Sequence record: DRR723986_6330
Strand: one strand, 5' to 3'
DNA: 49,973 nucleotides
Shown here: positions 5,182 to 40,088 of the stretch, in pieces
Position numbering within the stretch: position 1 is the stretch's first letter
Layout: every line of letters begins with the position of its first letter
The notes under the pieces: model-generated
What the model was told of the DNA's origin: nothing
What the model saw: only the letters and a program-made list of their open reading frames with translations
Databases searched by the model: none
Translations under genes and position numbers: made by a program

Positions 5182-8100
5182 GTGGAACCGAGTACAAACG
5201 ACCTGCAGGCGTGGATCGATGTTGGTGGAACGTTTACCGACTGCATCTTGTCTCGGGGCGGCGAACTGAGTCGGATAAAGGTGCTTAGCTCCGGAGCGAC
5301 ACCGATCCAGGTTCTACGGCGAGACAACTCTGAAAGAGTGACGCGGCTATGGTGCGACGCGAATTGGCCAGCCGGTTTTTGGCGCGGCTGCAAGCTCGTG
5401 GAAACCCGACCTCCCGCCGATTCTCATTCCGCCACAGCTCGTGTCGAGCAGGCGATTACCGACAGCGGGAGCAACTGGTTGCAATTAGACCAAGCGGTTG
5501 CTGAGCAGTCGGGGCGACTTGAAATCCACACTCCGCTGCATGCCCCCGTTCTTGGCATACATCTACTTCTTGGGATTCCGGCGCTGAACAAGCTACCTTC
5601 TGTTGCTGTACGGCTAGGGACAACGCGCGGGACGAATGCGCTGTTGACGCGCCGCGGTGCCGACACAGTGCTCGCAATCACAGCGCCGTTCGAAGACTTG
5701 CTGGCCATCGGCGATCAGACTCGCCCAGACCTTTTCGCCTTGGACGTAGAAAAGTCTCCGCCGTTGCCCAGCGTGATTATTCCGATCGACGAACGCTTAG
5801 ATGCAACAGGTGCGGTGCTCGTTCCACTCGACGAAAAATTGGCCATCGGTAAACTTCAAGAAGCCTTCGACGCGGGCTCACGCTCGCTTGCGATTTGCTT
5901 AATGCATAGCTACCTGAATCCTGACCACGAAACTCGACTGGCTGAACTGGCGCGGCGTGTTGGTTTTCAGGATATCTCGGTCTCCAGCCAAGTGGCTCCA
6001 CTGATCGAAGTCGTTTCTCGAGCCGAGACGACGGCGCTTGACGCCTATCTGAGCCCCGTCATTCGAAGCTACTTGGAAGAGATCGCAAATCAACTGGGCG
6101 GCGCATCGTCGGTTGATTTGCAGGTGATGACAAGTGCTGGGGGGCTGGTCCAATGGTCGGAGTTTCGAGGGAAAGATAGCATCTTGAGCGGCCCTGCTGG
6201 CGGCGTGGTCGCACTGGAGCATATCGGCAAATCGCTCGGACTCAACAATTTGATTGGGATCGACATGGGCGGCACGAGCACCGACGTTTGCCGCGCTGAT
6301 GGTGCTCAGAATCTAGAATACGAATCATCAAAAGCCGGTGTCAGGATACTAACACCAACGGTTCCTATACAGACCGTTGCGTCAGGAGGAGGCTCGGTTT
6401 GCTGGTTCGATGGAGTATCTTTGCGAGTCGGTCCGCAAAGCGCTGGCGCATCCCCTGGGCCAGCCTGTTATGGTGCAGGCGGACCATTGACGCTTACCGA
6501 TGTCAATCTTCTGCTCGACATTTTGCCTGACGATCAGTTCCCCTTCCCACTGGATCGCTCCGCGGCAGAGAGTCGCATCGAAGAGCTATTTCACGAATGC
6601 CGGTCGGCGACGAACATTTCCTCGACGGAAGCACTGGCCGAAGGGCTCAGACGGCTTGCTTGTGAACAAATGGCTGAGGCGGTTCGAACGGTGTCGATTG
6701 CTCAGGGACGCGATCCGCGCGATCACGCCTTGGTTGGCTTCGGAGGAGCCGCCGGATGCCATGTTTGCGAGGTGGCGGATCTGCTAGGCATTCGGACGGT
6801 TATCGACCATCCCGATGCGGGCCTGCTGAGCGCCCTCGGAATGGGGCTTGCCGCAGGGCGACGGGACGCAACACTGCCGGTCTACTCAGGCATCGAAGAC
6901 GTCGATTTTGCTCGGGTTCAGCAAGATGCCATAGGAGCGGTCCAGCGATTGAGTGCCGCTGAATCCGCGCCCAAGTGTCTTTTCGAAATCCGATATGCAG
7001 GCACCGACTCAACGATCAGCGTACCGCAAACTGAGTTCTTGTTTGCTGAACTTTCTGTTGAGTCGCCAGAAAGGCGGCGTGAATTCTCACTTAAACTGCG
7101 GGCGGAATTTGAAGAGAAGCACCGCAGTCTATACGGATATGTTCAGCTCGATTGTGCTGTCGAGTTGGTTTCCGTGCGGTGCGAAGTTCTCTCTCTTGCT
7201 GCATACAGCCTACCTCGCGAGCATCAGCTTCCGCGCGATAGGCACTCAACGACCGCTACGCAACACCGCGAGCCTGAAAGCAACCGAACGGACGGACGCA
7301 TACCGACCGAGGCACGCTCTGATCTGGTTCCTGGCAGGCAGGTCGTGGGGCCATGCATCATCAACAACAGCGGTTCGACTCTCTACATTCCGGAGGGCTG
7401 GCATTCGTGCGTTGCCAGCCAGGGAACATTGGTGTTGGAGAAGGCTCAGCGTTCCGGAGTTGAAACGTCGCGCGAGGTCGACGCCGTGTTGCGTGACTGC
7501 TTCGCGCAGCGATTGAGTGCTATTGCTGATCAAATGGGAGTCGTGCTTAAACGAACTGCCACAAGCGTCAACGTCAAGCAGCGACAGGACTACAGTTGCG
7601 CGGTTTTCGATTGCGCCGGAACTCTGCTCGCCAACGCGGCTCACGTTCCGGTGCACCTTGGAGCGATGGGGGCGACGGTTCGCGGCATTATCCAGCGGTT
7701 CCCGCAAATGAACCAGGGCGATGTGTTCATTACAAATGATCCGTTTGAGGGCGGTTCTCATCTGCCGGATATTACCGTTGTCACACCAGTTTTCGCGCCC
7801 GATGGCTCGCCGGCTTTTTTTGTTGCGAGCAGAGCCCATCATGCGGATGTTGGTGGCATTGCACCTGGATCAATGAGTGTCACTGCCACCAATCTGGCTG
7901 AAGAGGGAGTGCTCATCCAGCCAAGTTACTTATCCCGGCAGGGGAGCGACCGGATCAGTGAAATCGTGGTTTCGATGCAACAGCATGACTTTCCACCGAG
8001 GAAACTCGATGATCTCCAAGCTGACTTGAATGCTCAGCGAGCGGCAAATCATCGAGGCGCGAGTTTGCTTGCTGACTACTGCGATCAACTTGCGAAGCAT

Positions 8101-9057
8101 GCTGGCACCGACGAAGCTCCGTGGCAGCCTTCGGAGCAGCTCGCCGAATCACTCTTGGAAGCTTCACAGCAACGCATGCAAATGTATCTGCAAGGTAATT
8201 TTCAGCCCAACGAAAGATTCACAGCTAGCGACCAACTCGAAGACGGCACTGCAATCAACGTTTCGCTAGAGCTCGACGAACAGGCCATCTTGCACTGCGA
8301 TTTTTCAGGCTCGGGTCCCACGTCGGCGACCAACCTCAACGCGAACCCATCGATCACTTCTGCAGCACTGCTTTATGTCCTCCGTTGTCTGATCGACGAC
8401 GACCTGCCGCTGAACGAAGGTGCGCTTCGGTGCATCAGCCTGATGATTCCTACGGGGGTTCTCAACTCTCAACGTGGCTCCACTGCGGCGGAAAGTCCTG
8501 CGGTTGCTGCTGGCAATGTCGAAACCAGCCAACGTATTGTTGATGTACTTCTGCAGGCACTTGGGAAGGCAGCTTGTTCGCAGGGGACGATGAACAATCT
8601 CTTGTTTGGCGACGACACGTTTGGTTTCTATGAAACACTTTGCGGCGGAGCCGGAGCTACGGCGAATCGTGATGGGGCAAGTGGAGTGCATACGCATATG
8701 ACCAACACTCGTTTGACCGATCCTGAGGTCCTGGAGAGTCGCTACCCGGTGCGGCTTGAAGAGTTCGGCCTCAGGCATGGATCGGGAGGAAGCGGGCTGC
8801 ACGGTGGTGGTGATGGAGTGGTGCGACGAATTCGTTTTCTGCGCGATGTGCAGCTTTCGCTGTTGACGTCACGCCGCGAGCAGGGGCCACCCGGGATCTG
8901 CGGAGGCGGCCCAGGTGCACCAGGAAGAAATGCCCTGATCGACGCTGAGGGCAATCAGACAGAGTTGCCAGCTTTCTGTAGTATGCAAATCAAAGCAGGA
9001 AGCCAGCTCAGGATCGAGAGCCCCGGCGGCGGTGGATTCGGACCGCTCGAGCCGTGA
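5182..9057 (+). CDS. fused hydantoinase A/B / ATP-dependent 5-oxoprolinase family protein
   Basis: [66 protein letters not shown] and C-terminal PGGGGFG. Confidence 0.92.
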
Positions 9058-9108: not shown

Positions 9109-9450
9109 CTACTGGCCTTTGGAGTGATTGAAGAAGGGAATCAAGCATTCGTAGTGGATCGAACACCTATAGCCTTTCGCTTTCGAGTCAGCGAGTAGAT
9201 CGTCATCAATTGCGCATAGTGCAATCGGGTTGTCGAAATCAATTCTCGTTCGTCCTAGGTGGCCAATAATTGGCCCGAGCGGCAAGCAGTGTCTTCGCAC
9301 TACTTGGAGGGCATCGTCGTCGGCCAGCGTTTCAACGGTAACATAACCGCGAATAGGGCGGCTCCCGATGAAGCAAGCCAGGGCAAACACGATACAGATA
9401 CTCAAGAGTACGGAGCCCGCTACGATCCGCCCAGCAGCAACGCGACTCAT
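9109..9450 (-). CDS. small hypothetical membrane-anchored protein
   Basis: Fills the gap between genes. N-terminal hydrophobic helix (IVAGSVLLSICIVFALACFIG). Start uncertain: ATG 9450 or TTG 9483. Confidence 0.5.
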   Translation of the reverse strand: MSRVAAGRIVAGSVLLSICIVFALACFIGSRPIRGYVTVETLADDDALQVVRRHCLPLGPIIGHLGRTRIDFDNPIALCAIDDDLLADSKAKGYRCSIHYECLIPFFNHSKGQ

Positions 9451-9514
9451 CCGTTCAACAAATGCTTCGTAAAGTTCATCCAAAGTTGCTACCTCCGGAA
9501 TCGGGAAAAATCGG

Positions 9515-10513
9515 CTACAGCGCGGATACGTTGACGTAGCGGAATTGCCCACCGGTGCTGTCGGCAAGTGCTTCGATCCAGCCACCGCGTCCAGCGGCAT
9601 TGCGGGTTCCAAACTGAATTGTGTGAATCGTGGCCCCTGCATTGGCCGCTCGATCAACAACGGACTCAAGCTCCCGCGTCGAAGGGGCCGGAACGTCGGC
9701 GTCAGTTAGGAAGAAGAGAACGTCGGGCCCCATGGCAAGTCCCATGCGGAGGGCATCAATGTGTTGCGTGCTTCCGTCGGCCACGACCCCTTTTACAAAG
9801 CGAAGTGCGTCACGCTTGTCGCGATCTGTGCCTCGTAGAATTTGTGGCCCCTGAGGACTGTTGCTGCCGAATGCCGTCGGATACTCGTTGTAGAAGATAA
9901 CTTGGAACTCATGGGCCTCTCCAAGTGAGCCGATGCTTTCGATCATCTCACGTTTGGCGGCGCGGAATGGTGCCCCCGAATAACCATTCATGCTGGCCGA
10001 CCGGTCGAACACATAGACGAAGCGGTGCCCTTCACCTTCGATGCCGAAAACTTGCGTCTTGGCTTTGGCGACGTCGCGATTTCCGCTGATTCCCGTTACA
10101 CCTTCACCAAGGCCCAGACCACCCGAGGCAGCCTCGGCGGCGCCACCGGCATCGGTGCTGCCCGGCAAAAGATCGGCCAAGGCAGCTTCGGCGGCAGATG
10201 CTAAATCGGCGGCTGTATCTGAAGGTAGCACTGATTCCGCACTGGGGGCTTCGGCAGCATCGCCGGATCCCTCAGCTCCTTCGACAAGTTCGTAAGACTC
10301 CTGGCCTTGGTAGACAACGGCAACTCCAATGGGTCGTCCCGGTTCATCACCGGTCCCCTTGGGCACATTGGTCCAGAAGACGGCAAGCACAACGATCAGG
10401 CTGACGTGAAACAGCAGCGAAACTAACCAAGCGGGCATGCTGCTAAGCGACACGCCCGTTCGCGGCAACTGCGGAATCTCCCGTCGCTTCAAACGTTTGG
10501 GTTCACTGCTCAT
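9515..10513 (-). CDS. membrane-anchored von Willebrand factor A domain protein
   Basis: TM segment AWLVSLLFHVSLIVVLAVFW, Ala/Gly linker, MIDAS DRSAS...T...LTD and GGQFRYV end. Confidence 0.88.
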   Translation of the reverse strand: MSSEPKRLKRREIPQLPRTGVSLSSMPAWLVSLLFHVSLIVVLAVFWTNVPKGTGDEPGRPIGVAVVYQGQESYELVEGAEGSGDAAEAPSAESVLPSDTAADLASAAEAALADLLPGSTDAGGAAEAASGGLGLGEGVTGISGNRDVAKAKTQVFGIEGEGHRFVYVFDRSASMNGYSGAPFRAAKREMIESIGSLGEAHEFQVIFYNEYPTAFGSNSPQGPQILRGTDRDKRDALRFVKGVVADGSTQHIDALRMGLAMGPDVLFFLTDADVPAPSTRELESVVDRAANAGATIHTIQFGTRNAAGRGGWIEALADSTGGQFRYVNVSAL

Positions 10514-10590
10514 CGTTGTTGCTTGTCAAATGCCTGCTTCTGAACCGAACGCACGTCTCTATCAGTGAATCGGAACCTGTCTGCTCTGGT

Positions 10591-10890
10591 TTAAGGGCCA
10601 GGGTCAGTGGCAGGAACAGTAACAGAAGTACCGTTAATTACTATCTCGATTTGGTCTGTGTCGCCTTCCTTTTGTTTTGGAGGACGATCACCCATAGTGA
10701 ACGTAACGACGATTGTTTCGTAATCGGATCCATAAAGATTGGTCGTGTGGACGGTTACGTCTTTGCATGGAGTCTCGCTCTTGCCTACTTTCCAATTCAC
10801 CTTTACAGATGATTTGTCCTTCGGCGGAGCTCCAACGATGACATGGTTTGTTGCTCCCGGGCTGAAATAGATGGTTGGTAGGATTTGCAT
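10591..10890 (-). CDS. small hypothetical beta-rich protein (one DTDQIEI domain)
   Basis: SD-like GAGGTG just upstream of the ATG. Clear paralogy to the C-terminal domain of the neighbouring 224-aa protein. Confidence 0.8.
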   Translation of the reverse strand: MQILPTIYFSPGATNHVIVGAPPKDKSSVKVNWKVGKSETPCKDVTVHTTNLYGSDYETIVVTFTMGDRPPKQKEGDTDQIEIVINGTSVTVPATDPGP

Positions 10891-10957
10891 TGGTTCTCAC
10901 CTCTGGTGAATTCTTGTTTGGTTTTCGACGCCTAAAGAACAGAACAACGAAGCAGCA

Positions 10958-11632
10958 CTAGCTCGGTACCGTAACAACAGGCACACTGTCGATTGAAATC
11001 TCGATTTGATCGGTGTCACTTTCCTTGCCTACAGGTCCGCGAGCAGGAAGCTGCAACTGTACCACAATGGCAGTGTCAATCGGCCCGTAGTTTCGAACGT
11101 TGCGAACCGTACATGTCACACTACCGCCACCCCTCGTCCACTTTGCGCTGAATCTCGTGCTCTCCAGCCCCCGCAGCTCATCACCATCCAGGACGATTTG
11201 AATGTTTCGACTTGGGCGGAAGCTGATAAGCGGCAGTGTTCTGCTGACAAAGGGGACTCCTCTTGTCGTTTGCCTATAAGCAGCCTGGTCGTCGTCATCA
11301 ATGGGGTTGGCGTCATCGTCGTCGTCGTCTGGCGGCGGTGGATTGGGATTGGCGGGGAGCGTGACACTAGCGCCGTCGATCGTAATTTCTAAAACGTCAG
11401 TGTCGCTTTGTATACGGTCCGATTCACATAGCCTGTTCGTGAGCAGCGCGAGGTGAAGAACCACGCTTGAGTCGTTGATCGATTCCGCTTGTAAAACAGT
11501 TAACTGCAGATCGCCGGAGTCTGTCCTCAAGACTGCTTGGACATCCTGAGGACTGGCAAGGTCAGATCCGTGGACGGTGACCGCAAATGAAGGCTCGGTC
11601 ACTGCTGGACCGATGCGAGTTAAGCTGGGCAT
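10958..11632 (-). CDS. hypothetical protein with two DTDxxEI domains and a Pro/Asp linker
   Basis: SD AGGAG upstream of the ATG. Internal duplication SDTDVLEITIDG / SDTDQIEISID. Linker PNPPPPDDDDDD. Confidence 0.85.
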   Translation of the reverse strand: MPSLTRIGPAVTEPSFAVTVHGSDLASPQDVQAVLRTDSGDLQLTVLQAESINDSSVVLHLALLTNRLCESDRIQSDTDVLEITIDGASVTLPANPNPPPPDDDDDDANPIDDDDQAAYRQTTRGVPFVSRTLPLISFRPSRNIQIVLDGDELRGLESTRFSAKWTRGGGSVTCTVRNVRNYGPIDTAIVVQLQLPARGPVGKESDTDQIEISIDSVPVVTVPS

Positions 11633-11675
11633 GACTTATCTCCTGGGCAAACGCGTTGCGAATTTAAATGTGTTC

Positions 11676-14600
11676 TCATTGAGCGTCGGGCAATTTTTCC
11701 TGGATCCAGCTTTGTGCGGCAAGTAAAGGAGATTGCGTGAAAAATGTTCTTGCTTTCGCACGTGACGCAGCAGCGGCTTGAACATCACCCTGCATCGCCT
11801 CCACTTCAGCTCTTTCCAGGTAAGCGTCACCAGCGGTCTCCAAAGCACTAACCAGTTGCGGTGACTGCTCGACAAGTTGCTCGATCTCCATTGTAGCAAT
11901 CTCGATCACGCCCGCGGCTTCATCGTAGGCTTCCTGCTCACGAAGTTCGGCGCATTTAAGTGTCCGCGCGGCCGCGAGAGATTTTGTATATTGATAAAAA
12001 TCGGGAAAATTGGCCGCAAGTGGCTCTAGGAGGCGGATCGTCTCGTCCAATTCACTTGACCGCAAATCCATGTCAGCAGCTTGCGCTTTGAGCAAACGGA
12101 AGTGCCCCAGGTGGTACAGGGCGGAAATATTGCGAAAACGGCGGTCACTCTTGTCTCCTGAGTACGCTTCCAACTCCACAGGAACTCGATCTAGCAATCC
12201 CGACGCTTCTTCCAGATCTCCGAGTTCGCGGTGGCAAGTTGCAGCGCGAAGCAATGCGAGGATAAAGACCGACTCGAGCGCGTCGCCAGAGCGATTGTCT
12301 TCCAGGAGCTCTACAGACTCCAGCGCCTGAGGCAGCGCGTCGGAAAAATGACGTTGGCCACATTTGTGTGCAGCAGAATCAAGGACGCACATCGCCTTTA
12401 TGTGCGCCACGGCGGCCAGATTCGAGCTCCAATTCGGATCTGCCATCATTCGCTCGGTGGTCAAAATAGCTTCATCCATCAGAGCGTCGGCTTCTTCATA
12501 ACGTCCGAGTCCAGTCAGCGTATTGCTGAGACTCTTTATCGCTTGAGGAAGCTTTACCGATGCATTTGAAACGGCCTGCAACTCCGAGGCCTCCCGAAAC
12601 ATATCGATCGCTTTGCGGACATTTTCAATTCCGAGATCGATCTTCATCTGCTTACGCAGGTTATCACCATGCGTCAGGTAGAGTTTTCCAAGCCAGTAGA
12701 TCGAATCGTTGTCGCGGCGGAACAGCCTGTTGTCAGGATGCAGTTCGTCAAAGTCCTCGACGAATTGCACGACCTCGGTATACAGCCAATTGCGTACGGG
12801 CGTCATGGCAGCGTCTTGCGAGAATTCTTCCTCGCCGCGTTTGACAAACCGCTGCGTCAAGACTTGCAAGCCATCGTAGTTTGCCTGCAGGTCTTCCTGG
12901 CTCTGCTGCAAGTCGGCGTTTTTACGTTGGAGAGTCTCCTTCTGCTCCTCTAGAGTTTCTTTCTGCTGCTCCAAAGTGTCCTTCTGTGCCGTCAGTACGA
13001 TTTGGTTGTCTTCAAGCGTATCGCGTTGGGTCGAGATCACACCATTTTTGTAAACGCTGACGGCATAAGCAGCAGACAATCCCAGTAGAGCCGTCAATAC
13101 AGTTGCGGCCAGGCCCATCACTGCGGACTTGCGTTTTCGTAGCACCCGACCGGCTCGCTGCACCATCGTGTCTGGCTTTGCAACAATTGGTTCATCGGCC
13201 AGCCAGCGTTCCAGATCCTTCGCCAGTGCTATGGCAGAATCGTAGCGAGCTTCTTTGTCTAGGCTCATCGCCTTCAAGCAAATTGCCTCCAGTTGCAGCG
13301 ATATACTGCTGTCAACTTCTCGTGGCTTGGGGAACTTACCGCGGATCACATCCTCGATAACTTTCCCCTTGTCGGTTCGCTTGATGGGTGGCCGTCCGGT
13401 CAGGAGATTGAAAAGCGTTGCACCCAAGCTGTAGACGTCGGTGGCGTCGTCGAGTTCGCCAACTCGGCCACCAGCCTGTTCTGGGCTCATGAATTCGGGC
13501 GTTCCTGCAGTGGCTCCCGGCTGGGTTGGAGCCGCCGTACTTCCGGACCGCGGGACGACGGGTGATTGAGTGCCGCCATCGGACGCCTCCGCCGAGCCGA
13601 TAGCCTTCGCAAGGCCCCAGTCGACGACCAATGTCTCACCATAGCGTCCCAGCATGATGTTGCCTGGCTTGAGGTCCCTGTGGAGGACTTGCCGGGAGTG
13701 CGCGTAAGCAATTGCTTCGCAGACGTCGATCATTCGGCGAATCAGGTTGCGCGTTGACAAGTTGCGTTCCGAAGCCGACATGCGAGCCTTCGACTGATGA
13801 AACTCCTTGATCGCATCATCAAGACTGTCGCCGCGAATGAAACGCATGCAGTAATAGGGACGACCGTCGCTGAACGCGCCTAAACCGTACACGGGGACAA
13901 TGCCGGGGTGTTCTAGCCGTCCGGTAATTTCCGCTTCAATCTGAAGGCGTTGGCGAGCCTCTGTGGATGGGGCGTATTCTTCTCGCACCTCCTTGAGCGC
14001 TACTTCTCGGTTGAGTTCCTCGTCACGAGCGACCGAGACCTCCCCCAGCCCACCTTTGCGGTGTGGCCGCAGGACACGAAAACGACTGTTTGCTCCAAGC
14101 GACTCGGCGTAAAGCATTGTTGAGCCTCCAGTCGTGCCTCCGTCTGTTCGCGCCGCTGCCTCGCTACCGGTCGGATCTCCAAAGATCTTGGTAGCGCCCT
14201 CGCTAGCGGTTTTCAACGACTGGAGGCTCGAATGCGCATCGCCGGAACGCGCAAGTTGCGCAGACACAATTTGGCGCAACAGTTTGTCTTCATCATCTGT
14301 GACGACACGATTACGGACGAGCGCTGCGCCAAGATCGTCTTTGGATCCATTGGCGACTTCGTGCATGGTGCGCATCAATGCATCGAGACTCACGTATCCA
14401 AGTTGAACGCCTAGTTGCCCGTAGAGGCGGTCCATGTCGGAGCCGAGCGGCGGGTCGGATTCGGGATTCGCTTCGGTATGCATCTCGGGCGCACCGGTTT
14501 CGCTCTTGAGTTGAACGGACTCAAGCTCCTCAAGCTTGCCCAAAAGGGCCACCTGTAATTCGGGCTTACCGGCAGTGGCCGCCTTGATAAATTCAACGCG

Positions 14601-14699
14601 TTGCGTGGGCTGAAGCTGAAGCGCATGGCGCGCAAGCGTATCGACTGTCGCGGGGTCGTAACCTGACAACGGACCTACTTTCAGATGGGGCGTGGGCAA
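11676..14699 (-). CDS. membrane Ser/Thr protein kinase with coiled coil and C-terminal TPR-like helical region
   Basis: GGLGEV, VALKE, HRDLKPGN, DWG and GTPEFMSPEQ, then a TM segment (AVMGLAATVLTALLGLSAAYAV), QKETLEE-type heptads and helical repeats. TTG start is uncertain. Confidence 0.92.
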   Translation of the reverse strand: MPTPHLKVGPLSGYDPATVDTLARHALQLQPTQRVEFIKAATAGKPELQVALLGKLEELESVQLKSETGAPEMHTEANPESDPPLGSDMDRLYGQLGVQLGYVSLDALMRTMHEVANGSKDDLGAALVRNRVVTDDEDKLLRQIVSAQLARSGDAHSSLQSLKTASEGATKIFGDPTGSEAAARTDGGTTGGSTMLYAESLGANSRFRVLRPHRKGGLGEVSVARDEELNREVALKEVREEYAPSTEARQRLQIEAEITGRLEHPGIVPVYGLGAFSDGRPYYCMRFIRGDSLDDAIKEFHQSKARMSASERNLSTRNLIRRMIDVCEAIAYAHSRQVLHRDLKPGNIMLGRYGETLVVDWGLAKAIGSAEASDGGTQSPVVPRSGSTAAPTQPGATAGTPEFMSPEQAGGRVGELDDATDVYSLGATLFNLLTGRPPIKRTDKGKVIEDVIRGKFPKPREVDSSISLQLEAICLKAMSLDKEARYDSAIALAKDLERWLADEPIVAKPDTMVQRAGRVLRKRKSAVMGLAATVLTALLGLSAAYAVSVYKNGVISTQRDTLEDNQIVLTAQKDTLEQQKETLEEQKETLQRKNADLQQSQEDLQANYDGLQVLTQRFVKRGEEEFSQDAAMTPVRNWLYTEVVQFVEDFDELHPDNRLFRRDNDSIYWLGKLYLTHGDNLRKQMKIDLGIENVRKAIDMFREASELQAVSNASVKLPQAIKSLSNTLTGLGRYEEADALMDEAILTTERMMADPNWSSNLAAVAHIKAMCVLDSAAHKCGQRHFSDALPQALESVELLEDNRSGDALESVFILALLRAATCHRELGDLEEASGLLDRVPVELEAYSGDKSDRRFRNISALYHLGHFRLLKAQAADMDLRSSELDETIRLLEPLAANFPDFYQYTKSLAAARTLKCAELREQEAYDEAAGVIEIATMEIEQLVEQSPQLVSALETAGDAYLERAEVEAMQGDVQAAAASRAKARTFFTQSPLLAAQSWIQEKLPDAQ

Positions 14700-15122: not shown

Positions 15123-16226
15123 TTAGCGATTGATGGGTTGCCCAGGAGTCTGTGGGTTAGCAACTTGCTGTCGCGCCTCTGGTGGAATGTACGGCTTCTC
15201 CTCGACAGTCCAGTCTTTGCCAAGTGTGGTGGCAATGAAGCTCTTTCGAAACAGATTGGCACGCAACGCATCCATGACCGGATTCACGGAACGATTGTCG
15301 AATTGGTAGATTTCGCGAACTTGGTTCTTCGGTGTCCAGTTTGGCATGAAGACGACCATGGCCTTGGGCAGCGTGTCGGCTCGATCAAGGTAGATTTGCA
15401 CACGAGAATAATTGCCAGCGTCATCGGCCCGCTTAGGAACGACCTCCAGTAGCACTTCGTTGGGTTTGCCTTCGACGGCCACGTTCCGAATCCAGTAACG
15501 CCGGAGCATCTCATCCGCTTTAACACCAAATACAAACGGTAGCGGACTTTGGAACACTTTGTTGTCGCGGTATTCCGGCGGCAACTCAACTCGCAGCGCC
15601 TTCTTTTCGTTTTGATCGAGTATGTGGATCCAGCGACCGTCGCAAATCCAGTGCTCGCCATGAGGCTCATCAGGGTTGACTGCGTACTCCGGTGGCGATT
15701 CCTTAACCAGGGTTTCTAGCTTGTCAATTTTGTACTCAGCTTTGCCTGGATCTTCAAACTTCAGCGTGCCAACGCCTCTGCTGAAGTGGCCAGCCGCAAA
15801 GTTTGCTGGGTTGAACTGCCACCGCTGAACCGTGCACGTGTAACGTTTGATGTCGGCGGTTCGCTTTTCCCACACTTGCAAAACAGCGTTAACGAATTGC
15901 TGATCCTGGGCGCTGAGTGCCGGCCACGGCGGTTGTGCTACCTGTGCTTGGCCCGCAGCGACAGCTTGTTCAACCTGCACAAGTGGCACTCGGCGTTGCC
16001 CGGGTGCAAGTGGCTGCTGCCCGTTTTGTTGACTAGCTTGTTGCTGTGCAGCTTGTTGCTGAGCCATCTGCTGCCGGTACGCCTGCTGCTGCGCTGGCGT
16101 CATCTGCTGCTGTGAAGACGCTTGAAATGCGACGGCTGGAGTGATGGATGAAAGCACAATTCCCGCACCTAGAAGGCCAGAAAGTGTTGTGGCAACTATT
16201 TTTCTCACTCTGCAGAGCATTTGCAT
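15123..16226 (-). CDS. TIGR03009-like planctomycete exported protein
   Basis: Signal peptide, Gln-rich linker, then VLQVWEK, GEHWICDG, PLPFVFG and RYW motifs recalled for this family. Confidence 0.75.
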   Translation of the reverse strand: MQMLCRVRKIVATTLSGLLGAGIVLSSITPAVAFQASSQQQMTPAQQQAYRQQMAQQQAAQQQASQQNGQQPLAPGQRRVPLVQVEQAVAAGQAQVAQPPWPALSAQDQQFVNAVLQVWEKRTADIKRYTCTVQRWQFNPANFAAGHFSRGVGTLKFEDPGKAEYKIDKLETLVKESPPEYAVNPDEPHGEHWICDGRWIHILDQNEKKALRVELPPEYRDNKVFQSPLPFVFGVKADEMLRRYWIRNVAVEGKPNEVLLEVVPKRADDAGNYSRVQIYLDRADTLPKAMVVFMPNWTPKNQVREIYQFDNRSVNPVMDALRANLFRKSFIATTLGKDWTVEEKPYIPPEARQQVANPQTPGQPINR

Positions 16227-18835: not shown

Positions 18836-19858
18836 TCATTTCGATGCGAGGGCGACCGTCAGGACGAGAGCAAGTGCAAAAACTCCGACGACGGTCAAGA
18901 ACATCCAGCTAACGCTCCGGCCGTTTTCCGGAGCCAATTTGGTCTGCAGCAGCTTCAGCCCAGGGTCAACGACGCTACCGGCGCCAACGTCGTCCGCCGC
19001 AGCATCGATATGCTCGCTGTCACCCAGGATTTGGCGTTGTTCGGGCGAGTCGAGCGCTCCGATCATCACACCCTGAACTGTTCTCGCGTTGAATGGTCGG
19101 TCGTTGGGATCTTTTTGCAATAATTGGTGCACAATATTGCAAATTGGTTTCGGGACATCCGAAACTAACTCTTCCACCCTGGGCGGATCTTTAAAAAGGT
19201 GTTGCTCGAATAGATTGGCAAAATTGGTCCCTTGGAAAGGTTTTTGCCCAGTTAGAAGTTCGAACAACACGCAGCCCAGAGAGTAAAGATCAGCTTGGCC
19301 GGTCAGATTATTGTCGCCGCGGATTTGTTCGGGAGGCATGTACGAATTGGTACCAACGGTCAGCCCTTGGTTGGTCAAGTCTGCGGAATTGGTGTCACGA
19401 GCGATGCCGAAATCCCCAAGCTTGACGCTTGCTTCCATCGTCATGAAAAGATTCGATGGCTTCAAATCGCGATGAATAATGCCGAAGTTATGCGCGTGCT
19501 GAAGCGCACTGCAGACTTGACGGCCAATCGACGCGACCTCAGCCCAGTTGAGGCGATCGTAGCGTTGGAGCAAGTCGCTGACGTTGCCACCGTCCAAAAT
19601 TTCCATCGCGTAAAAGAGTTGCCCGTCCCGTTCGCCATCACCGTAATAGTGGATAATGTGCGGATGTTTGAGTCGTTCCAGGATGGCAATCTCGCGCCGA
19701 AACCGAGCTCGAACCAATTCGTCTGCCGAAACAGCTTTCTGCAAGAATTTGACGGCGACCATGTCTCCCGTTGACTTGATCTTCGCGCGGAACACATCCC
19801 CTACTGTGCCCGTGCCGAGCGATTCTCCCAACTCGAGGTCGTCGAATTCGATTTTCAT
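18836..19858 (-). CDS. Ser/Thr protein kinase with C-terminal membrane anchor
   Basis: LGTGTVG, VAVK, HRDLKPSN, DFG and YMPPEQ, with a C-terminal hydrophobic helix. Confidence 0.92.
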   Translation of the reverse strand: MKIEFDDLELGESLGTGTVGDVFRAKIKSTGDMVAVKFLQKAVSADELVRARFRREIAILERLKHPHIIHYYGDGERDGQLFYAMEILDGGNVSDLLQRYDRLNWAEVASIGRQVCSALQHAHNFGIIHRDLKPSNLFMTMEASVKLGDFGIARDTNSADLTNQGLTVGTNSYMPPEQIRGDNNLTGQADLYSLGCVLFELLTGQKPFQGTNFANLFEQHLFKDPPRVEELVSDVPKPICNIVHQLLQKDPNDRPFNARTVQGVMIGALDSPEQRQILGDSEHIDAAADDVGAGSVVDPGLKLLQTKLAPENGRSVSWMFLTVVGVFALALVLTVALASK

Positions 19859-36054: not shown

Positions 36055-37533
36055 ATGCTTATGCCCCCGAGATTTATTCCAAAATCATTGGTTTTCGTAC
36101 CCCTTGTCCTTGCTGCCTTCAGCTTTTCGTGCTCTTGCACGCAAGCCGAGTCGCGTTCTGAGCAGCCCCACATTGTGTTCATTATGGTGGACGATATGGG
36201 CTACGGGGATCCAGGGTGTTTCAATCCTGAATCGAAAATCCGGACGCCAAACATTGATTCAGTAGCCACGAATGGACTGCGTTTCACCGATGCCCACGCA
36301 CCAGGGCCACTTTGCCACATGTCACGGTACGGATTGATGACTGGCAAGTATCCGTTTCGTACCAACGTTGGCGTCTGGCCCAAGAAACCGCTGATTGCAC
36401 CGGGGCAAACAACGGTTGCCTCGATGCTGCACTCGCAAGGATACAAGACCGCCATGGTCGGAAAGTGGCACCTTGGCTTTGCAGAAAACGGATACAACAA
36501 AGCGCTGCCCGGCGGCCCTGTCGATGTTGGCTTCGATTCCTTCTTTGGCATTCGCGCATCGACTGACATTCCACCCTACTTCTATATTCGTGACCGCCAT
36601 GCCGTAAAGCCACCGACCGAACCGATTGCCGCCAAGAGCACCCCCGGCTGGTCGCCCATTCAAGGTGAGTTCTGGCGTGAGGGACTGATTGCGAAGGATA
36701 TGGAATTGCACGATGTGCTCCCCCGATTCACTGACGAAGCCATCGAAGTGATTGAGCAGAGTGATGCGTCGGAACCGATGTTTCTGTATTTGGCTTATCC
36801 CGCCCCTCACACCCCATGGCTGCCGTCTGAGGAGTTTGCCGGCAAAAGCAAAGCGGGGCTGTATGGCGATTTCGCTGAGATGGTAGACAGCGAGATTGGA
36901 CGCGTTCTTGCGGCTCTGAACGATAGCGGGCATGCTGAGAACACTTTGCTGATCATCACCAGCGACAACGGGCCAGTTTGGTACGAAGTCGATGTCGAGA
37001 AATTTGGGCACGCCAGCGTTGGGCCATTACGAGGAATGAAGGCCGATGCTTGGGAAGGAGGTCACCGGATGCCCATGGTTGTCAGTTGGCCAGGTGTGGT
37101 CGAGGCAGGTGGCAAGAGTGATCGCTTGGTATCGTTTGTTGACGTTTTCGCGACGCTAGCCGATGTCACCGAGTACGAACTCATGGATTCGGATTGCCCA
37201 GATAGCTTCAGTTTCGCTGATCAACTGAGTGCGAAGTTCGCGGTCGAAAGTCCACGACGGGAGCTGGCCTTGAAATCGGGCAGAGGCCTGATGGTATTTC
37301 GCGACGCAGCCAACAAACTAATCGACGGCCCCGGTTCAGGAGGTTTCTCAGGTGGCCGCGGTGCGAAACGCCGCAATACTGCTGCTAATGCAAAGGAATA
37401 CCAACTCTACGACCTAGCCAGCGACCTGGGAGAATCAAACAACCTGGCCGCCGACTCACCGGAACGGGTTGAGACAATGCTGAAGCGGCTGCGAGCGGTC
37501 GAAGATGCTGCAGGACACCGATTCATGCAGTAG
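36055..37533 (+). CDS. arylsulfatase family (S1) sulfatase
   Basis: IMVDDMGYGD, signature LCHMSRYGLMTG, GKWHLG, PHTP, SDNG and WEGGHR. Confidence 0.9.
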   Translation: MLMPPRFIPKSLVFVPLVLAAFSFSCSCTQAESRSEQPHIVFIMVDDMGYGDPGCFNPESKIRTPNIDSVATNGLRFTDAHAPGPLCHMSRYGLMTGKYPFRTNVGVWPKKPLIAPGQTTVASMLHSQGYKTAMVGKWHLGFAENGYNKALPGGPVDVGFDSFFGIRASTDIPPYFYIRDRHAVKPPTEPIAAKSTPGWSPIQGEFWREGLIAKDMELHDVLPRFTDEAIEVIEQSDASEPMFLYLAYPAPHTPWLPSEEFAGKSKAGLYGDFAEMVDSEIGRVLAALNDSGHAENTLLIITSDNGPVWYEVDVEKFGHASVGPLRGMKADAWEGGHRMPMVVSWPGVVEAGGKSDRLVSFVDVFATLADVTEYELMDSDCPDSFSFADQLSAKFAVESPRRELALKSGRGLMVFRDAANKLIDGPGSGGFSGGRGAKRRNTAANAKEYQLYDLASDLGESNNLAADSPERVETMLKRLRAVEDAAGHRFMQ

Positions 37534-38417: not shown

Positions 38418-40088
38418 ATGATTCATCTGAATCGGTCCATGGTCAAGCGGCTGAGCGTTCTGCTCCTTTTTACGGTGGCGTGCAGCTCGGCGCCTCAAGA
38501 TGTAGCTGCCCAGAACAAAACGTCCGAGGAGGTCACAACACCTGTTCAGCGTGGCGCGAGCAAGGGGAAGGCCGAGCAGCGGCCCAATATCGTTTTTGCT
38601 TTCGCTGACGATTGGGGGCGATACGCAAGCAGCTACGCAAAAGTTGAACCTGGTGGCCCTTCGGATATCGTCGAGACTCCAAATTTTGATTCGGTCGCTA
38701 ACGATGGCGTCTTGTTCACTCAGGCCTACGTGAACGCGCCGAGCTGTACGCCCTGTCGCAGTTCATTGTTGTCGGGACAATATTTCTGGCGAACCGGTCG
38801 TGGTGCGATTCTGCAAGGTGCGATTTGGGATCCGAAGATTCCTACTTACCCACTCCTGCTTGAGCGGGCACGGTATCGCATCGGGCATACCTACAAAGTC
38901 TGGAGTCCCGGGACGCCCAGAGATGCTCCGCATGGTGGGGAGCGAACTCGTTTCGCAAAAGCGGGCGGACGATTCAATGGGTTTTCGCAGTTTGTTGCGC
39001 GATCAGACGACAAGGAAGCCGCCAAGCAGAAGCTGCTTGATGAAGTTCGGCAGAATTTCGAGCAGTTCTTAGATTCCAGTGGCGATGGCCCCTTCTGCTA
39101 CTGGTTCGGTCCAACGAATTGCCATCGGAAGTGGATCAAGGGCTCGGGCAAAGACCACTGGGGACTGGATCCCGATGACTTGAAGGGAAAGCTGCCCAAA
39201 TTCCTGCCTGATGTCCCCGAAGTGCGACAGGACTTCTGTGATTACCTGGGCGAGGTACAGGCCTTTGATGCGGGACTCGGTGTGCTACTTCAAGAGCTGG
39301 ACCGACGCGGCCTGACGGAAAATACGATCGTCGTCGTCAGTGGTGACCACGGAATCCCCGGCATCCCGAGAGGTAAATGCAACCTCTATGATTTGGGAAC
39401 ACAAGTGCCGCTGGCGATTCGATGGCCAAAGAAGGTACCGGGAAAACGCATTGTTCAAGATTTCGTTTGCCTGCCTGACCTCGCCCCAACCCTACTTGAA
39501 CTTGCTGGGCAATCGCCACCGGCAGTGATGACCGGGCGTAGCCTAAAAGACGTTCTGCTGTCCGATGCCGAAGGAGTTGTTGATTCTTCACGTGACGCCG
39601 TTATCGTCGGTCGTGAGCGGCACGTCGCAAAAGCACGTCGTGGCAACCTGCCTTACCCGCAACGAGCGATCCGAACGAAGAACTACCTCTACATCCGCAA
39701 TTTTGAACCTGACCGCTATGCGATGGGGAATGCTCCTGGATTCGGCCTTCCGGACGGAGAAATGCCGACTTGGAAGCCGCTGCAGGAAAACACTTTCGCG
39801 GCATTCGGTGATTTGGATGCGAGCCCGACAAAGGCCTGGATGCTGACCAACCTCGATCAGCCTTCGGTGCGAAACATGGTTGAGCTCACGATGGGATTGC
39901 GACCTGCGGAAGAACTCTACTACTTGCCCGACGATCCCGACCACATGAAGAACCTCGCCGAGCAGTCATCGCACGCATCGATCAAAGCCAACCTCTCGGC
40001 GCGTCTGATGAAGGTCTTGCGAGAGACTGGCGACCCACGCGTGATGAGCGATCCAATCATATTTGAGGCTTCGCCATTCACTGACTAG
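38418..40088 (+). CDS. sulfatase (sulfamidase / heparan N-sulfatase-like)
   Basis: FAFADDWG, canonical CTPCR signature, [16 protein letters not shown] and YPQRAIR. Confidence 0.9.

Follow-up and report, generated by a model that had tools for sequence, protein, structure and literature searches.

The two described domain classes that come closest to the element studied here are the IPT/TIG and the PKD domains. The element is a domain of about 85-95 amino acids (aa) that occurs three times in two adjacent small genes, named A and B in this work, within a stretch of 49,973 nucleotides (nt) from sequence record DRR723986_6330 (the window, at its full length). Intracellular IPT/TIG domains, such as those of Rel, CAMTA and Sec5, act in dimerisation or binding. 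PKD domains (PF00801, PF18911 and the K319L-like PF22352) resemble the A/B domain in being beta-sandwiches of the same size. According to a study of bacterial PKD-like domains, their hallmarks are the motif DxDGxIxxYxWDFGDG, covering strand C and a turn, and the motif NPxHxYxxxGxYxVxLxVxDxxG, covering strands E-F (PMC4356367). The same study describes the bacterial PKD-like domains as binding Ca2+ through conserved Asp residues and gaining stability in this way, the ligands in the clostridial domains being an N-terminal Asn, the D-x-D ahead of strand C and the Asp at the end of strand F (PMC4356367).

Compared with these systems, A and B are interpreted, with moderate confidence, as small soluble proteins built from a rare and diverged immunoglobulin-like (Ig-like) sandwich of the E-set class, PKD/IPT-like in character, and would most likely act as a non-enzymatic protein-binding or adaptor module. 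The interpretation draws on the relationship among the domain copies and their few homologues, on the alignment of their most conserved motif with PKD repeats, and on the predicted fold.

Domain copies, homologues and strain variants

Gene A (10591..10890) encodes a 99-aa single-domain protein, and gene B (10958..11632) a 224-aa protein that consists of an N-type domain (residues 1-96, 11345..11632), an acidic, low-complexity Pro/Asp linker (approximately residues 97-126, NPPPPDDDDDDANPIDDDD..., 11255..11344) and a C-type domain (residues 127-224, 10961..11254), all on the minus strand. Both genes were delimited as open reading frames (ORFs), and the assignment of A as a divergent C-type copy follows from BLASTP and an AlphaFold2 model. 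Within B, the N-type domain was recognised by its match to the homologue P0014 and by hhalign to the C-type profile, the C-type domain by its identity to A and to the homologue P0002, and the linker by its sequence, its low predicted local distance difference test score (pLDDT) and the presence of indels among strains.

The original prediction held that A and the C-terminal half of B align along their length, and this was borne out by BLASTP, which paired residues 4-94 of A with residues 133-224 of B at 33 identities in 95 positions (35%, E 7e-10); a second match, confined to the motif region, joined residues 75-92 of A to residues 75-92 of B (10/18 identities, E 4e-4). The DNA identity claimed near 10643 and 10998 proved exact, with 25 of the 29 bases identical between the two 29-mers, and the best 29-mer match between gene A and gene B in a shuffle control (20 shuffles of A) was 17-20. 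The N-terminal half of B had been proposed as a third and more diverged copy. When a C-type profile (A, the C-terminal half of B and P0002) was compared by hhalign with an N-type profile (the N-terminal half of B and P0014), the two matched with a probability of 95.8% (E 6.9e-9) over 76 columns, which identifies the N-terminal half of B as a diverged copy of full length that shares more than a common motif. Both B domains also match the hidden Markov model (HMM) of the family (i-E 2.5e-31 and 1.1e-38), which is so by construction, as both are training rows. A six-frame scan of the window with the same HMM found no fourth copy, the next best match having an E value of 1.6.

The most conserved element of the domain is the string D-T-D-x-x-E-I-x-I, invariant in all five copies available (A, the two halves of B, P0002 and P0014), and the invariant columns of their alignment are D77, T78, D79, E82, I83, I85 and P93. 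In A the motif reads DTDQIEIVI (residues 77-85, 10636..10662, minus strand) and corresponds to a loop leading into strand six of seven, as placed by the five-copy alignment and by model strand 79-85; in the C-type domain of B it reads DTDQIEISI (residues 206-214, 10991..11017, minus) and lies inside the 25/29 DNA match at 10998; in the N-type domain of B it reads DTDVLEITI (residues 77-85, 11378..11404, minus, by the five-copy alignment). The three C-type copies additionally share L-P-x-I-x-F, W33, G36, C42 and Y53.

Homologues proved extremely scarce. When 1,835,955,588 representative proteins were searched exhaustively by hmmsearch with the three-copy profile, 13 of them had E<=1e-3; the sole true full-length homologue among these is P0002 (123 aa, E 2.9e-14), and P0014 (111 aa) was gained by a word-index search with a four-row profile. 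The family is thus very rare: the 1.84 billion representative proteins contain a single true homologue, and an index of 5.8 billion clusters contributed one more. Word-index searches with A or B alone, which cover proteins of near length only and not longer fusions, gave no homologues, and the exact A and B sequences are absent from a collection of 15 billion proteins. P0002 is 38% identical to the C-terminal half of B (E 4e-23) and 33% identical to A (E 1e-12), a lower value than to B, while P0014 is 35% identical to the N-terminal half of B (E 1e-15). P0002 is therefore a separate C-type and P0014 a separate N-type single-domain protein, the two types being fused in B; both start with Lys/Arg-rich tails, and B carries the Asp/Pro-rich linker. 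Judged by these identities, the family is split into two subtypes, an N-type (the N-terminal half of B and P0014) and a C-type (the C-terminal half of B, P0002 and A), and A is an extra C-type copy that is diverging faster. Two further profile matches, P0010 (269 aa, internal repeats, no family) and P0006 (CHU_C, DUF11), were considered as relatives and set aside as weak or spurious.

As the original prediction stated, both genes have Shine-Dalgarno sites: purine-rich, Shine-Dalgarno-like stretches can be read directly in the sequence, namely a GAGGTGA that ends about 6 nt ahead of the ATG of A and an AGGAGA about 6 nt ahead of the ATG of B. The predicted lack of a signal peptide is also upheld: no hydrophobic N-terminus was found by hydropathy in A, B, P0002 or P0014, and the maximum mean Kyte-Doolittle value of A and B stays below 0.9 in 12-residue windows over the first 40 residues. 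The GC content over gene A is 0.46, the lowest in the neighbourhood, against approximately 0.55-0.60 in the flanking DNA.

Close variants of the stretch are present in contigs from four public DNA runs (shares 0.22-0.31), which were compared over positions 10400-11800 at a likeness of at least 80%. One contig spans B with 63 differences, at least 38 of them substitutions within B, and the 38 listed substitutions alter 31 codons, 17 synonymously and 14 non-synonymously. Among the listed changes, D-T-D and E-I are untouched in both B domains; apart from Q75L, the motif region of the N-type domain shows only synonymous changes, in codons L81 and I85, and DTDQIEISI in the C-type domain is unaltered. 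Indels keep the frame in the linker of B, which loses 15 nt at 11306 and gains 3 nt at 11315, and likewise in the C-terminal tail of A, where deletions of 11 and 1 nt add up to 12. The codon split of 17:14, the in-frame indels, the sparing of DTD and EI, and the existence of homologues at 33-38% identity show that A and B are real genes under purifying selection. In one of the runs (X4), a contig of 1597 bases links 10527 to 10955 by 446 letters that differ from the 427 containing gene A in the window, and another contig from that run spans 10665-11050 and shows 13 differences. Gene A thus seems to be replaced, or diverged by more than 20%, in some strains.

Comparison with PKD repeats and the predicted fold

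The company in which P0002 was found is informative, as Pfam PKD_4 domains, 4-14 per protein, occur in eight of the 13 profile-search matches and a K319L-like PKD domain in a ninth; the remaining matches include one with CHU_C and DUF11 domains and one with an unclassified internal repeat. In the printed alignments, which cover eight domain alignments from three PKD proteins, the register is constant. The family W is aligned with the W of WDFGDG, the family Y with the tyrosine of HxY and the hydrophobic strand with YxVxLxV, and the family DTDxxEI falls on the PKD stretch 'DTDxxxV' or 'C-x-(S/T)-D-(S/T)-D-x-x-x-V' that precedes the last strands. Of 81 PKD domains taken from the matching proteins, 17 have D[ST]D in the last 30 residues, directly ahead of the aligned strand, compared to 0/81 in the first 30, a count that is biased upward since the 81 domains were picked by the family profile itself. 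By hhalign, the family and these 81 profile-picked domains match with a P value of 0.0077 and a probability of only 5%, and the score was reached by 1 of 100 column shuffles.

The best match in the library is P0001 (E 5.2e-30, summed over 12 stretches), a 1433-aa fragment with 16 near-identical tandem repeats of 88 aa, 12 of which hold an exact DTDQMDITI, and none of which passes for any Pfam domain alone. The near-identical motif stands in the same place, '...IVTLTLTAQGNADCADDTDQMDITIEH' in the P0001 repeat against '...IVVQLQLPARGPVGKESDTDQIEISID' in the family. The likeness does not reach beyond the last 33-39 positions (33 columns in hhalign, P 0.0031), and P0001, a giant tandem-repeat protein, is otherwise unlike the small stand-alone A and B. 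The original prediction had singled out the Thr-containing acidic motif as the most conserved element of the domain. That part stands, with DTD invariant in both homologues found, but the motif is not specific to the family, as its occurrence in the profile-picked PKD domains and its 12 copies in P0001 demonstrate.

A was modelled by AlphaFold2 with an alignment of five rows as a seven-strand beta-sandwich (pLDDT 83.4, predicted TM-score 0.75), in agreement with the beta-rich sandwich foreseen in the original prediction. The model strands comprise residues 14-20, 29-35, 38-41, 43-50, 59-65, 79-85 and 88-93, so the model has the seven strands, two sheets and approximately 90-100 residues that define an Ig-like sandwich. 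D-T-D directly precedes strand 79-85, and V-T-V-P forms the last strand. DTDxxEIxI would accordingly be placed, in the model, as a loop and the start of strand six, building the final beta-hairpin together with the V-T-x-P strand.

Among the 48,161 chains compared with the model by VIA-align, 2,136 were found at Z>=2, 52 at Z>=5 and none at Z>=8. The highest-scoring chain is a Bacteroides protein of unknown function (Z 6.7); two SGBP-B proteins come next (Z 6.4 and 6.3), followed by a galactose-oxidase homologue, plexins, Met, Rel-homology/NFAT/TonEBP, the CAMTA1 TIG domain, Sec5 and amylase-family domains. By title, 14 of the 50 rows listed are plexin, Met, Rel-homology, NFAT, TonEBP, CAMTA1-TIG, Sec5 or BCAP-DBB, and no PKD structure is among these 50. 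The weak rows given by Foldseek include beta-2-microglobulin, I-set and other Ig-like domains, and its list, when rescored, places GalS1, FlaG/FlaF and C1-set Ig domains at Z 5.0-6.3. Each listed structural neighbour spans approximately residues 3-95 of the A model. An Ig-like sandwich is well supported by the model, and IPT/TIG in particular only slightly. In this respect the original prediction of a new domain was overstated, since the predicted fold is a generic Ig-like/E-set one with plexin, Met, Rel, CAMTA1-TIG and SGBP-B as neighbours at Z 5.5-6.7.

Several observations weigh against the interpretation of A and B as such a module. On the side of the sequence, a Pfam search of A, B, each half of B, P0002 and P0014 was empty at E<=10; matches to single PKD domains do not exceed 13.4 bits, the library E values being sums over repeats, and the set of PKD domains compared is the biased one mentioned above. 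The five-row profile had no sequence matches in the PDB, and scans of genome, metagenome and viral contigs yielded no confirmed related locus. P0002 and P0014 come from one public source, with a longest contig of 34,456 bases given for each, which suggests that they lie on one contig but is not a proof of it. On the side of the structure, the model of A is a prediction from five aligned rows and not a solved structure, B folded alone reached a pLDDT of 51 (below 50 over residues 115-141), Foldseek had no match at E<=1e-3 in PDB or BFVD, and, on the own scale of VIA-align, a Z below 8 possibly reflects just a common arrangement, values of 5-6.7 being middling. Finally, the absence of a signal peptide was judged by a hydropathy heuristic and not by a signal-peptide predictor.

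Other resources were equally silent. NCBIfam gave no family at E<=10, which, together with the Pfam result, agrees with the original statement that no known family is recognised. The PDB sequence search with the three-copy profile yielded a single row (E 0.79); the only PADLOC row for A, B, P0002 and P0014 has an E value of 0.0094, and the best E value in PHROGs was 0.14. In the open-access literature nothing was found on TIG domains in Planctomycetes or on the three motif strings, nor anything joining Planctomycetes, immunoglobulin-like, serine threonine kinase and von Willebrand (three of the four terms required). Two outcomes had been named beforehand as speaking against the original prediction, a confident match to a characterised family and the loss of DTD among homologues. 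Neither was obtained in full: no family matched with confidence, and DTD was retained.

Gene neighbourhood and possible roles

Genes A and B are the inner members of a four-gene run on the minus strand, in the order kinase, B, A and vWA-like gene, with gaps of 43, 67 and 77 nt. The upstream neighbour (11676..14699, minus), which ends 43 nt before B, encodes a 1007-aa membrane Ser/Thr kinase, identified by its Pkinase domain (E 1e-32 at residues 215-487) and by hydropathy, with one hydrophobic helix at 525-550 and a C-terminal part that is TPR-like (TPR_10, sub-threshold). PADLOC also matched this kinase to the defence system PD-T4-6 (best E 9e-65), an assignment that was rejected, the match being made via the kinase domain only and representing generic similarity. 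The downstream neighbour (9515..10513, minus) starts 77 nt after A and encodes a 332-aa protein that has a single hydrophobic helix near its N-terminus (23-51) and a C-terminal part weakly resembling vWA, where VWA_2 (E 0.0038, 18.3 bits for a cut-off of 27) and VWA (E 0.022) are both sub-threshold.

Further genes were recorded around this run. A second Hanks-type Ser/Thr kinase gene is located approximately 7 kb away, at 18836-19858 (minus), so that two such genes occur within 8 kb. Upstream of the gene for the 1007-aa kinase, and on the same strand, a 367-aa protein (15123-16226, minus) has an N-terminal hydrophobic segment and two sub-threshold matches, DUF4484 (E 7.4e-4) and DUF1571 (E 0.093). 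A 186-aa ORF without a Pfam family (9109-9669, minus) shares about 155 nt, read in a different frame, with the 3' end of the vWA-like gene, and a 1291-aa ORF (5182-9057, plus) represents a fusion of Hydantoinase_A, with its N-terminal region, to Hydantoinase_B/oxoprolinase (E 2.3e-82 and 1.1e-162). The rest of the window contains ordinary chromosomal genes, namely, besides this hydantoinase/oxoprolinase fusion, kynureninase-like, biotin ligase, sulfatase, cyclophilin and helicase genes; two of the sulfatase genes (36055-37533 and 38418-40088, plus) stand on either side of a thioredoxin-like gene. No phage or mobile-element families turned up among the window ORFs scanned with Pfam.

Several features hint at how the proposed module could work. 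B joins an N-type and a C-type domain by an acidic linker, as opposed to the only other source found, which encodes them as two separate small proteins; this fusion in B and separation elsewhere points to a joint action of the N and C domains, and they would then pair with each other. The tight same-strand cluster suggests a link to the kinase and the vWA-like protein. The probable site of action of the module is the cytoplasmic side, where it would work with the flanking membrane Ser/Thr kinase and the vWA-like membrane protein. The adjacency of the kinase is nevertheless weak evidence, because a second kinase gene is nearby and kinases are common here. The DTD motif is read as structural because the same loop-to-strand element is also borne by a subset of PKD-type repeats; it would be a fold-stabilising signature common to a subset of bacterial PKD-type repeats, having no catalytic or modification role. 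No enzyme-like feature was seen in these proteins, and a non-catalytic binding or adaptor role, inferential as it is, is the most economical assumption.

The motif itself could also be explained by phosphorylation. In such a case, the Thr of DTD would be phosphorylated by the upstream kinase, and the phosphorylated form (pT-x-x-I/L) would recruit or release a partner, coupling the system to the vWA-like protein. The pT-x-x-I/L pattern suits FHA domains. B lies 43 nt behind the kinase gene on the same strand, the Thr is invariant in all five copies, and the residue at +3 is I or L in 5/5. However, the +3 residue falls within the predicted strand 79-85, where packing explains I/L, the same D[ST]D-x-x-x-hydrophobic pattern recurs, aligned with the motif, in the PKD repeats of large repeat proteins without an associated kinase, and the second kinase gene at 18836-19858 weakens the argument from adjacency. 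Moreover, FHA families were absent among the 13 + 4 + 18 window ORFs scanned with Pfam, with one sub-threshold FHA row seen only in the unrelated P0006, and a phospho-switch is therefore considered unlikely. A more elaborate form of it, in which A and B would serve the kinase as its output pair in the cytoplasm, an N/C Ig-fold heterodimer whose DTD Thr is phosphorylated, thereby switching the pairing or the hold on the vWA-like protein, is more doubtful still; if true, such a phospho-switched pair would be a bacterial phospho-regulated Ig-fold adaptor of an undescribed kind. Alternatively, the D-x-D and the nearby acidic residues (E/S/G-D-T-D, and E at +5) could bind Ca2+ or another divalent ion, stabilising the sandwich or bridging the N and C domains. 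Both Asp residues of DTD are invariant in 5/5 copies, which is in favour of such a site. Against it speak the low level of free Ca2+ in the cytoplasm and the absence from the family of the equivalent D-x-D-G before strand C. The Ca2+ binding of bacterial PKD-like domains provides a precedent, but the ligands described for them (PMC4356367) do not fall on the position that aligns with DTD, so that a metal site at DTD, while possible, is unsupported by it, and we rate this explanation as rather improbable.

It is also conceivable that A and B are exported or surface proteins, short free-standing kin of adhesin-stalk repeats that leave the cell without a classical signal peptide. All sequence relatives outside the family are indeed large repeat proteins of PKD or CHU_C type, and the structural neighbours are mostly extracellular Ig-like domains. 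On the other hand, A, B, P0002 and P0014 have no hydrophobic N-terminus, the latter two begin with Lys/Arg-rich residues, and no secretion-system gene was detected among the window ORFs scanned, which leaves export with a similarly small probability. The last alternative, a truly new fold or superfamily whose PKD and IPT resemblances are convergent beta-strand patterns, could account for the lack of any match to a curated model, for Z values that are all below 8 and for the 5% probability of the hhalign comparison with PKD. It appears very improbable, since the model is a standard seven-strand sandwich with 52 of the 48,161 chains at Z>=5, the PKD register is constant in the repeats examined, and the hhalign score was matched by only 1 of 100 column shuffles.

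Position relative to PKD and IPT/TIG domains

If the reading of A and B as small soluble proteins of an Ig-like sandwich is right, they add one more small orphan family to the intracellular Ig-like proteins, with no new mechanism by itself, and the N and C subtypes, fused in one source and split in another, would extend the thin record of bacterial cytoplasmic Ig-fold modules. A broader lesson concerns sharply conserved acidic Thr motifs in beta-rich repeats, which can be PKD-like structural signatures and are not necessarily functional sites.

With regard to IPT/TIG domains (PF01833), the likeness is structural. Plexins A2, A4 and A1 were found at Z 6.2, 6.0 and 5.8, Met at 6.2, NF-kB/NFAT/TonEBP at 5.5-5.9 and the CAMTA1 TIG domain at 5.5, with superpositions on the A model covering 72-81 residues at a root-mean-square deviation of 2.6-3.2 A. 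None of these reaches 8, and they are within one Z unit of unrelated C1-set Ig domains (5.0-5.6). The Pfam TIG model gave no match at E<=10. Language-model features of B lean weakly to TIG clusters, with scores of 0.85-0.88 that are below 0.9, the level at which a score counts as more than a lead, and those of A have a best score of 0.79 and no TIG row.

With regard to PKD domains, the likeness is one of sequence drift, and the hallmarks are mostly lost. From the strand-C stretch the C-type copies keep only W-x-x-G (NWKVG, KWTRG, RWKIG), the N-type copies are without the W, and the D-x-D-G before strand C is absent in all five family copies. From the stretch of strands E-F, what is left is the Tyr of the C-type copies and the alternating hydrophobic strand, with no NP, no His and no terminal Asp; the N-type copies lack both motifs. 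Unlike PKD domains, the family matches no Pfam PKD model even at E<=10, and A and B are small, stand-alone proteins without a signal peptide, as opposed to the long tandem arrays of exported PKD proteins. The A/B domain is therefore best described as lying between PKD-like domains, by sequence drift, and IPT/TIG-like domains, by predicted structure, without the defining sequence features of either. Its predicted fold is a familiar one, which makes it a new family at the level of sequence rather than a domain of a new kind.

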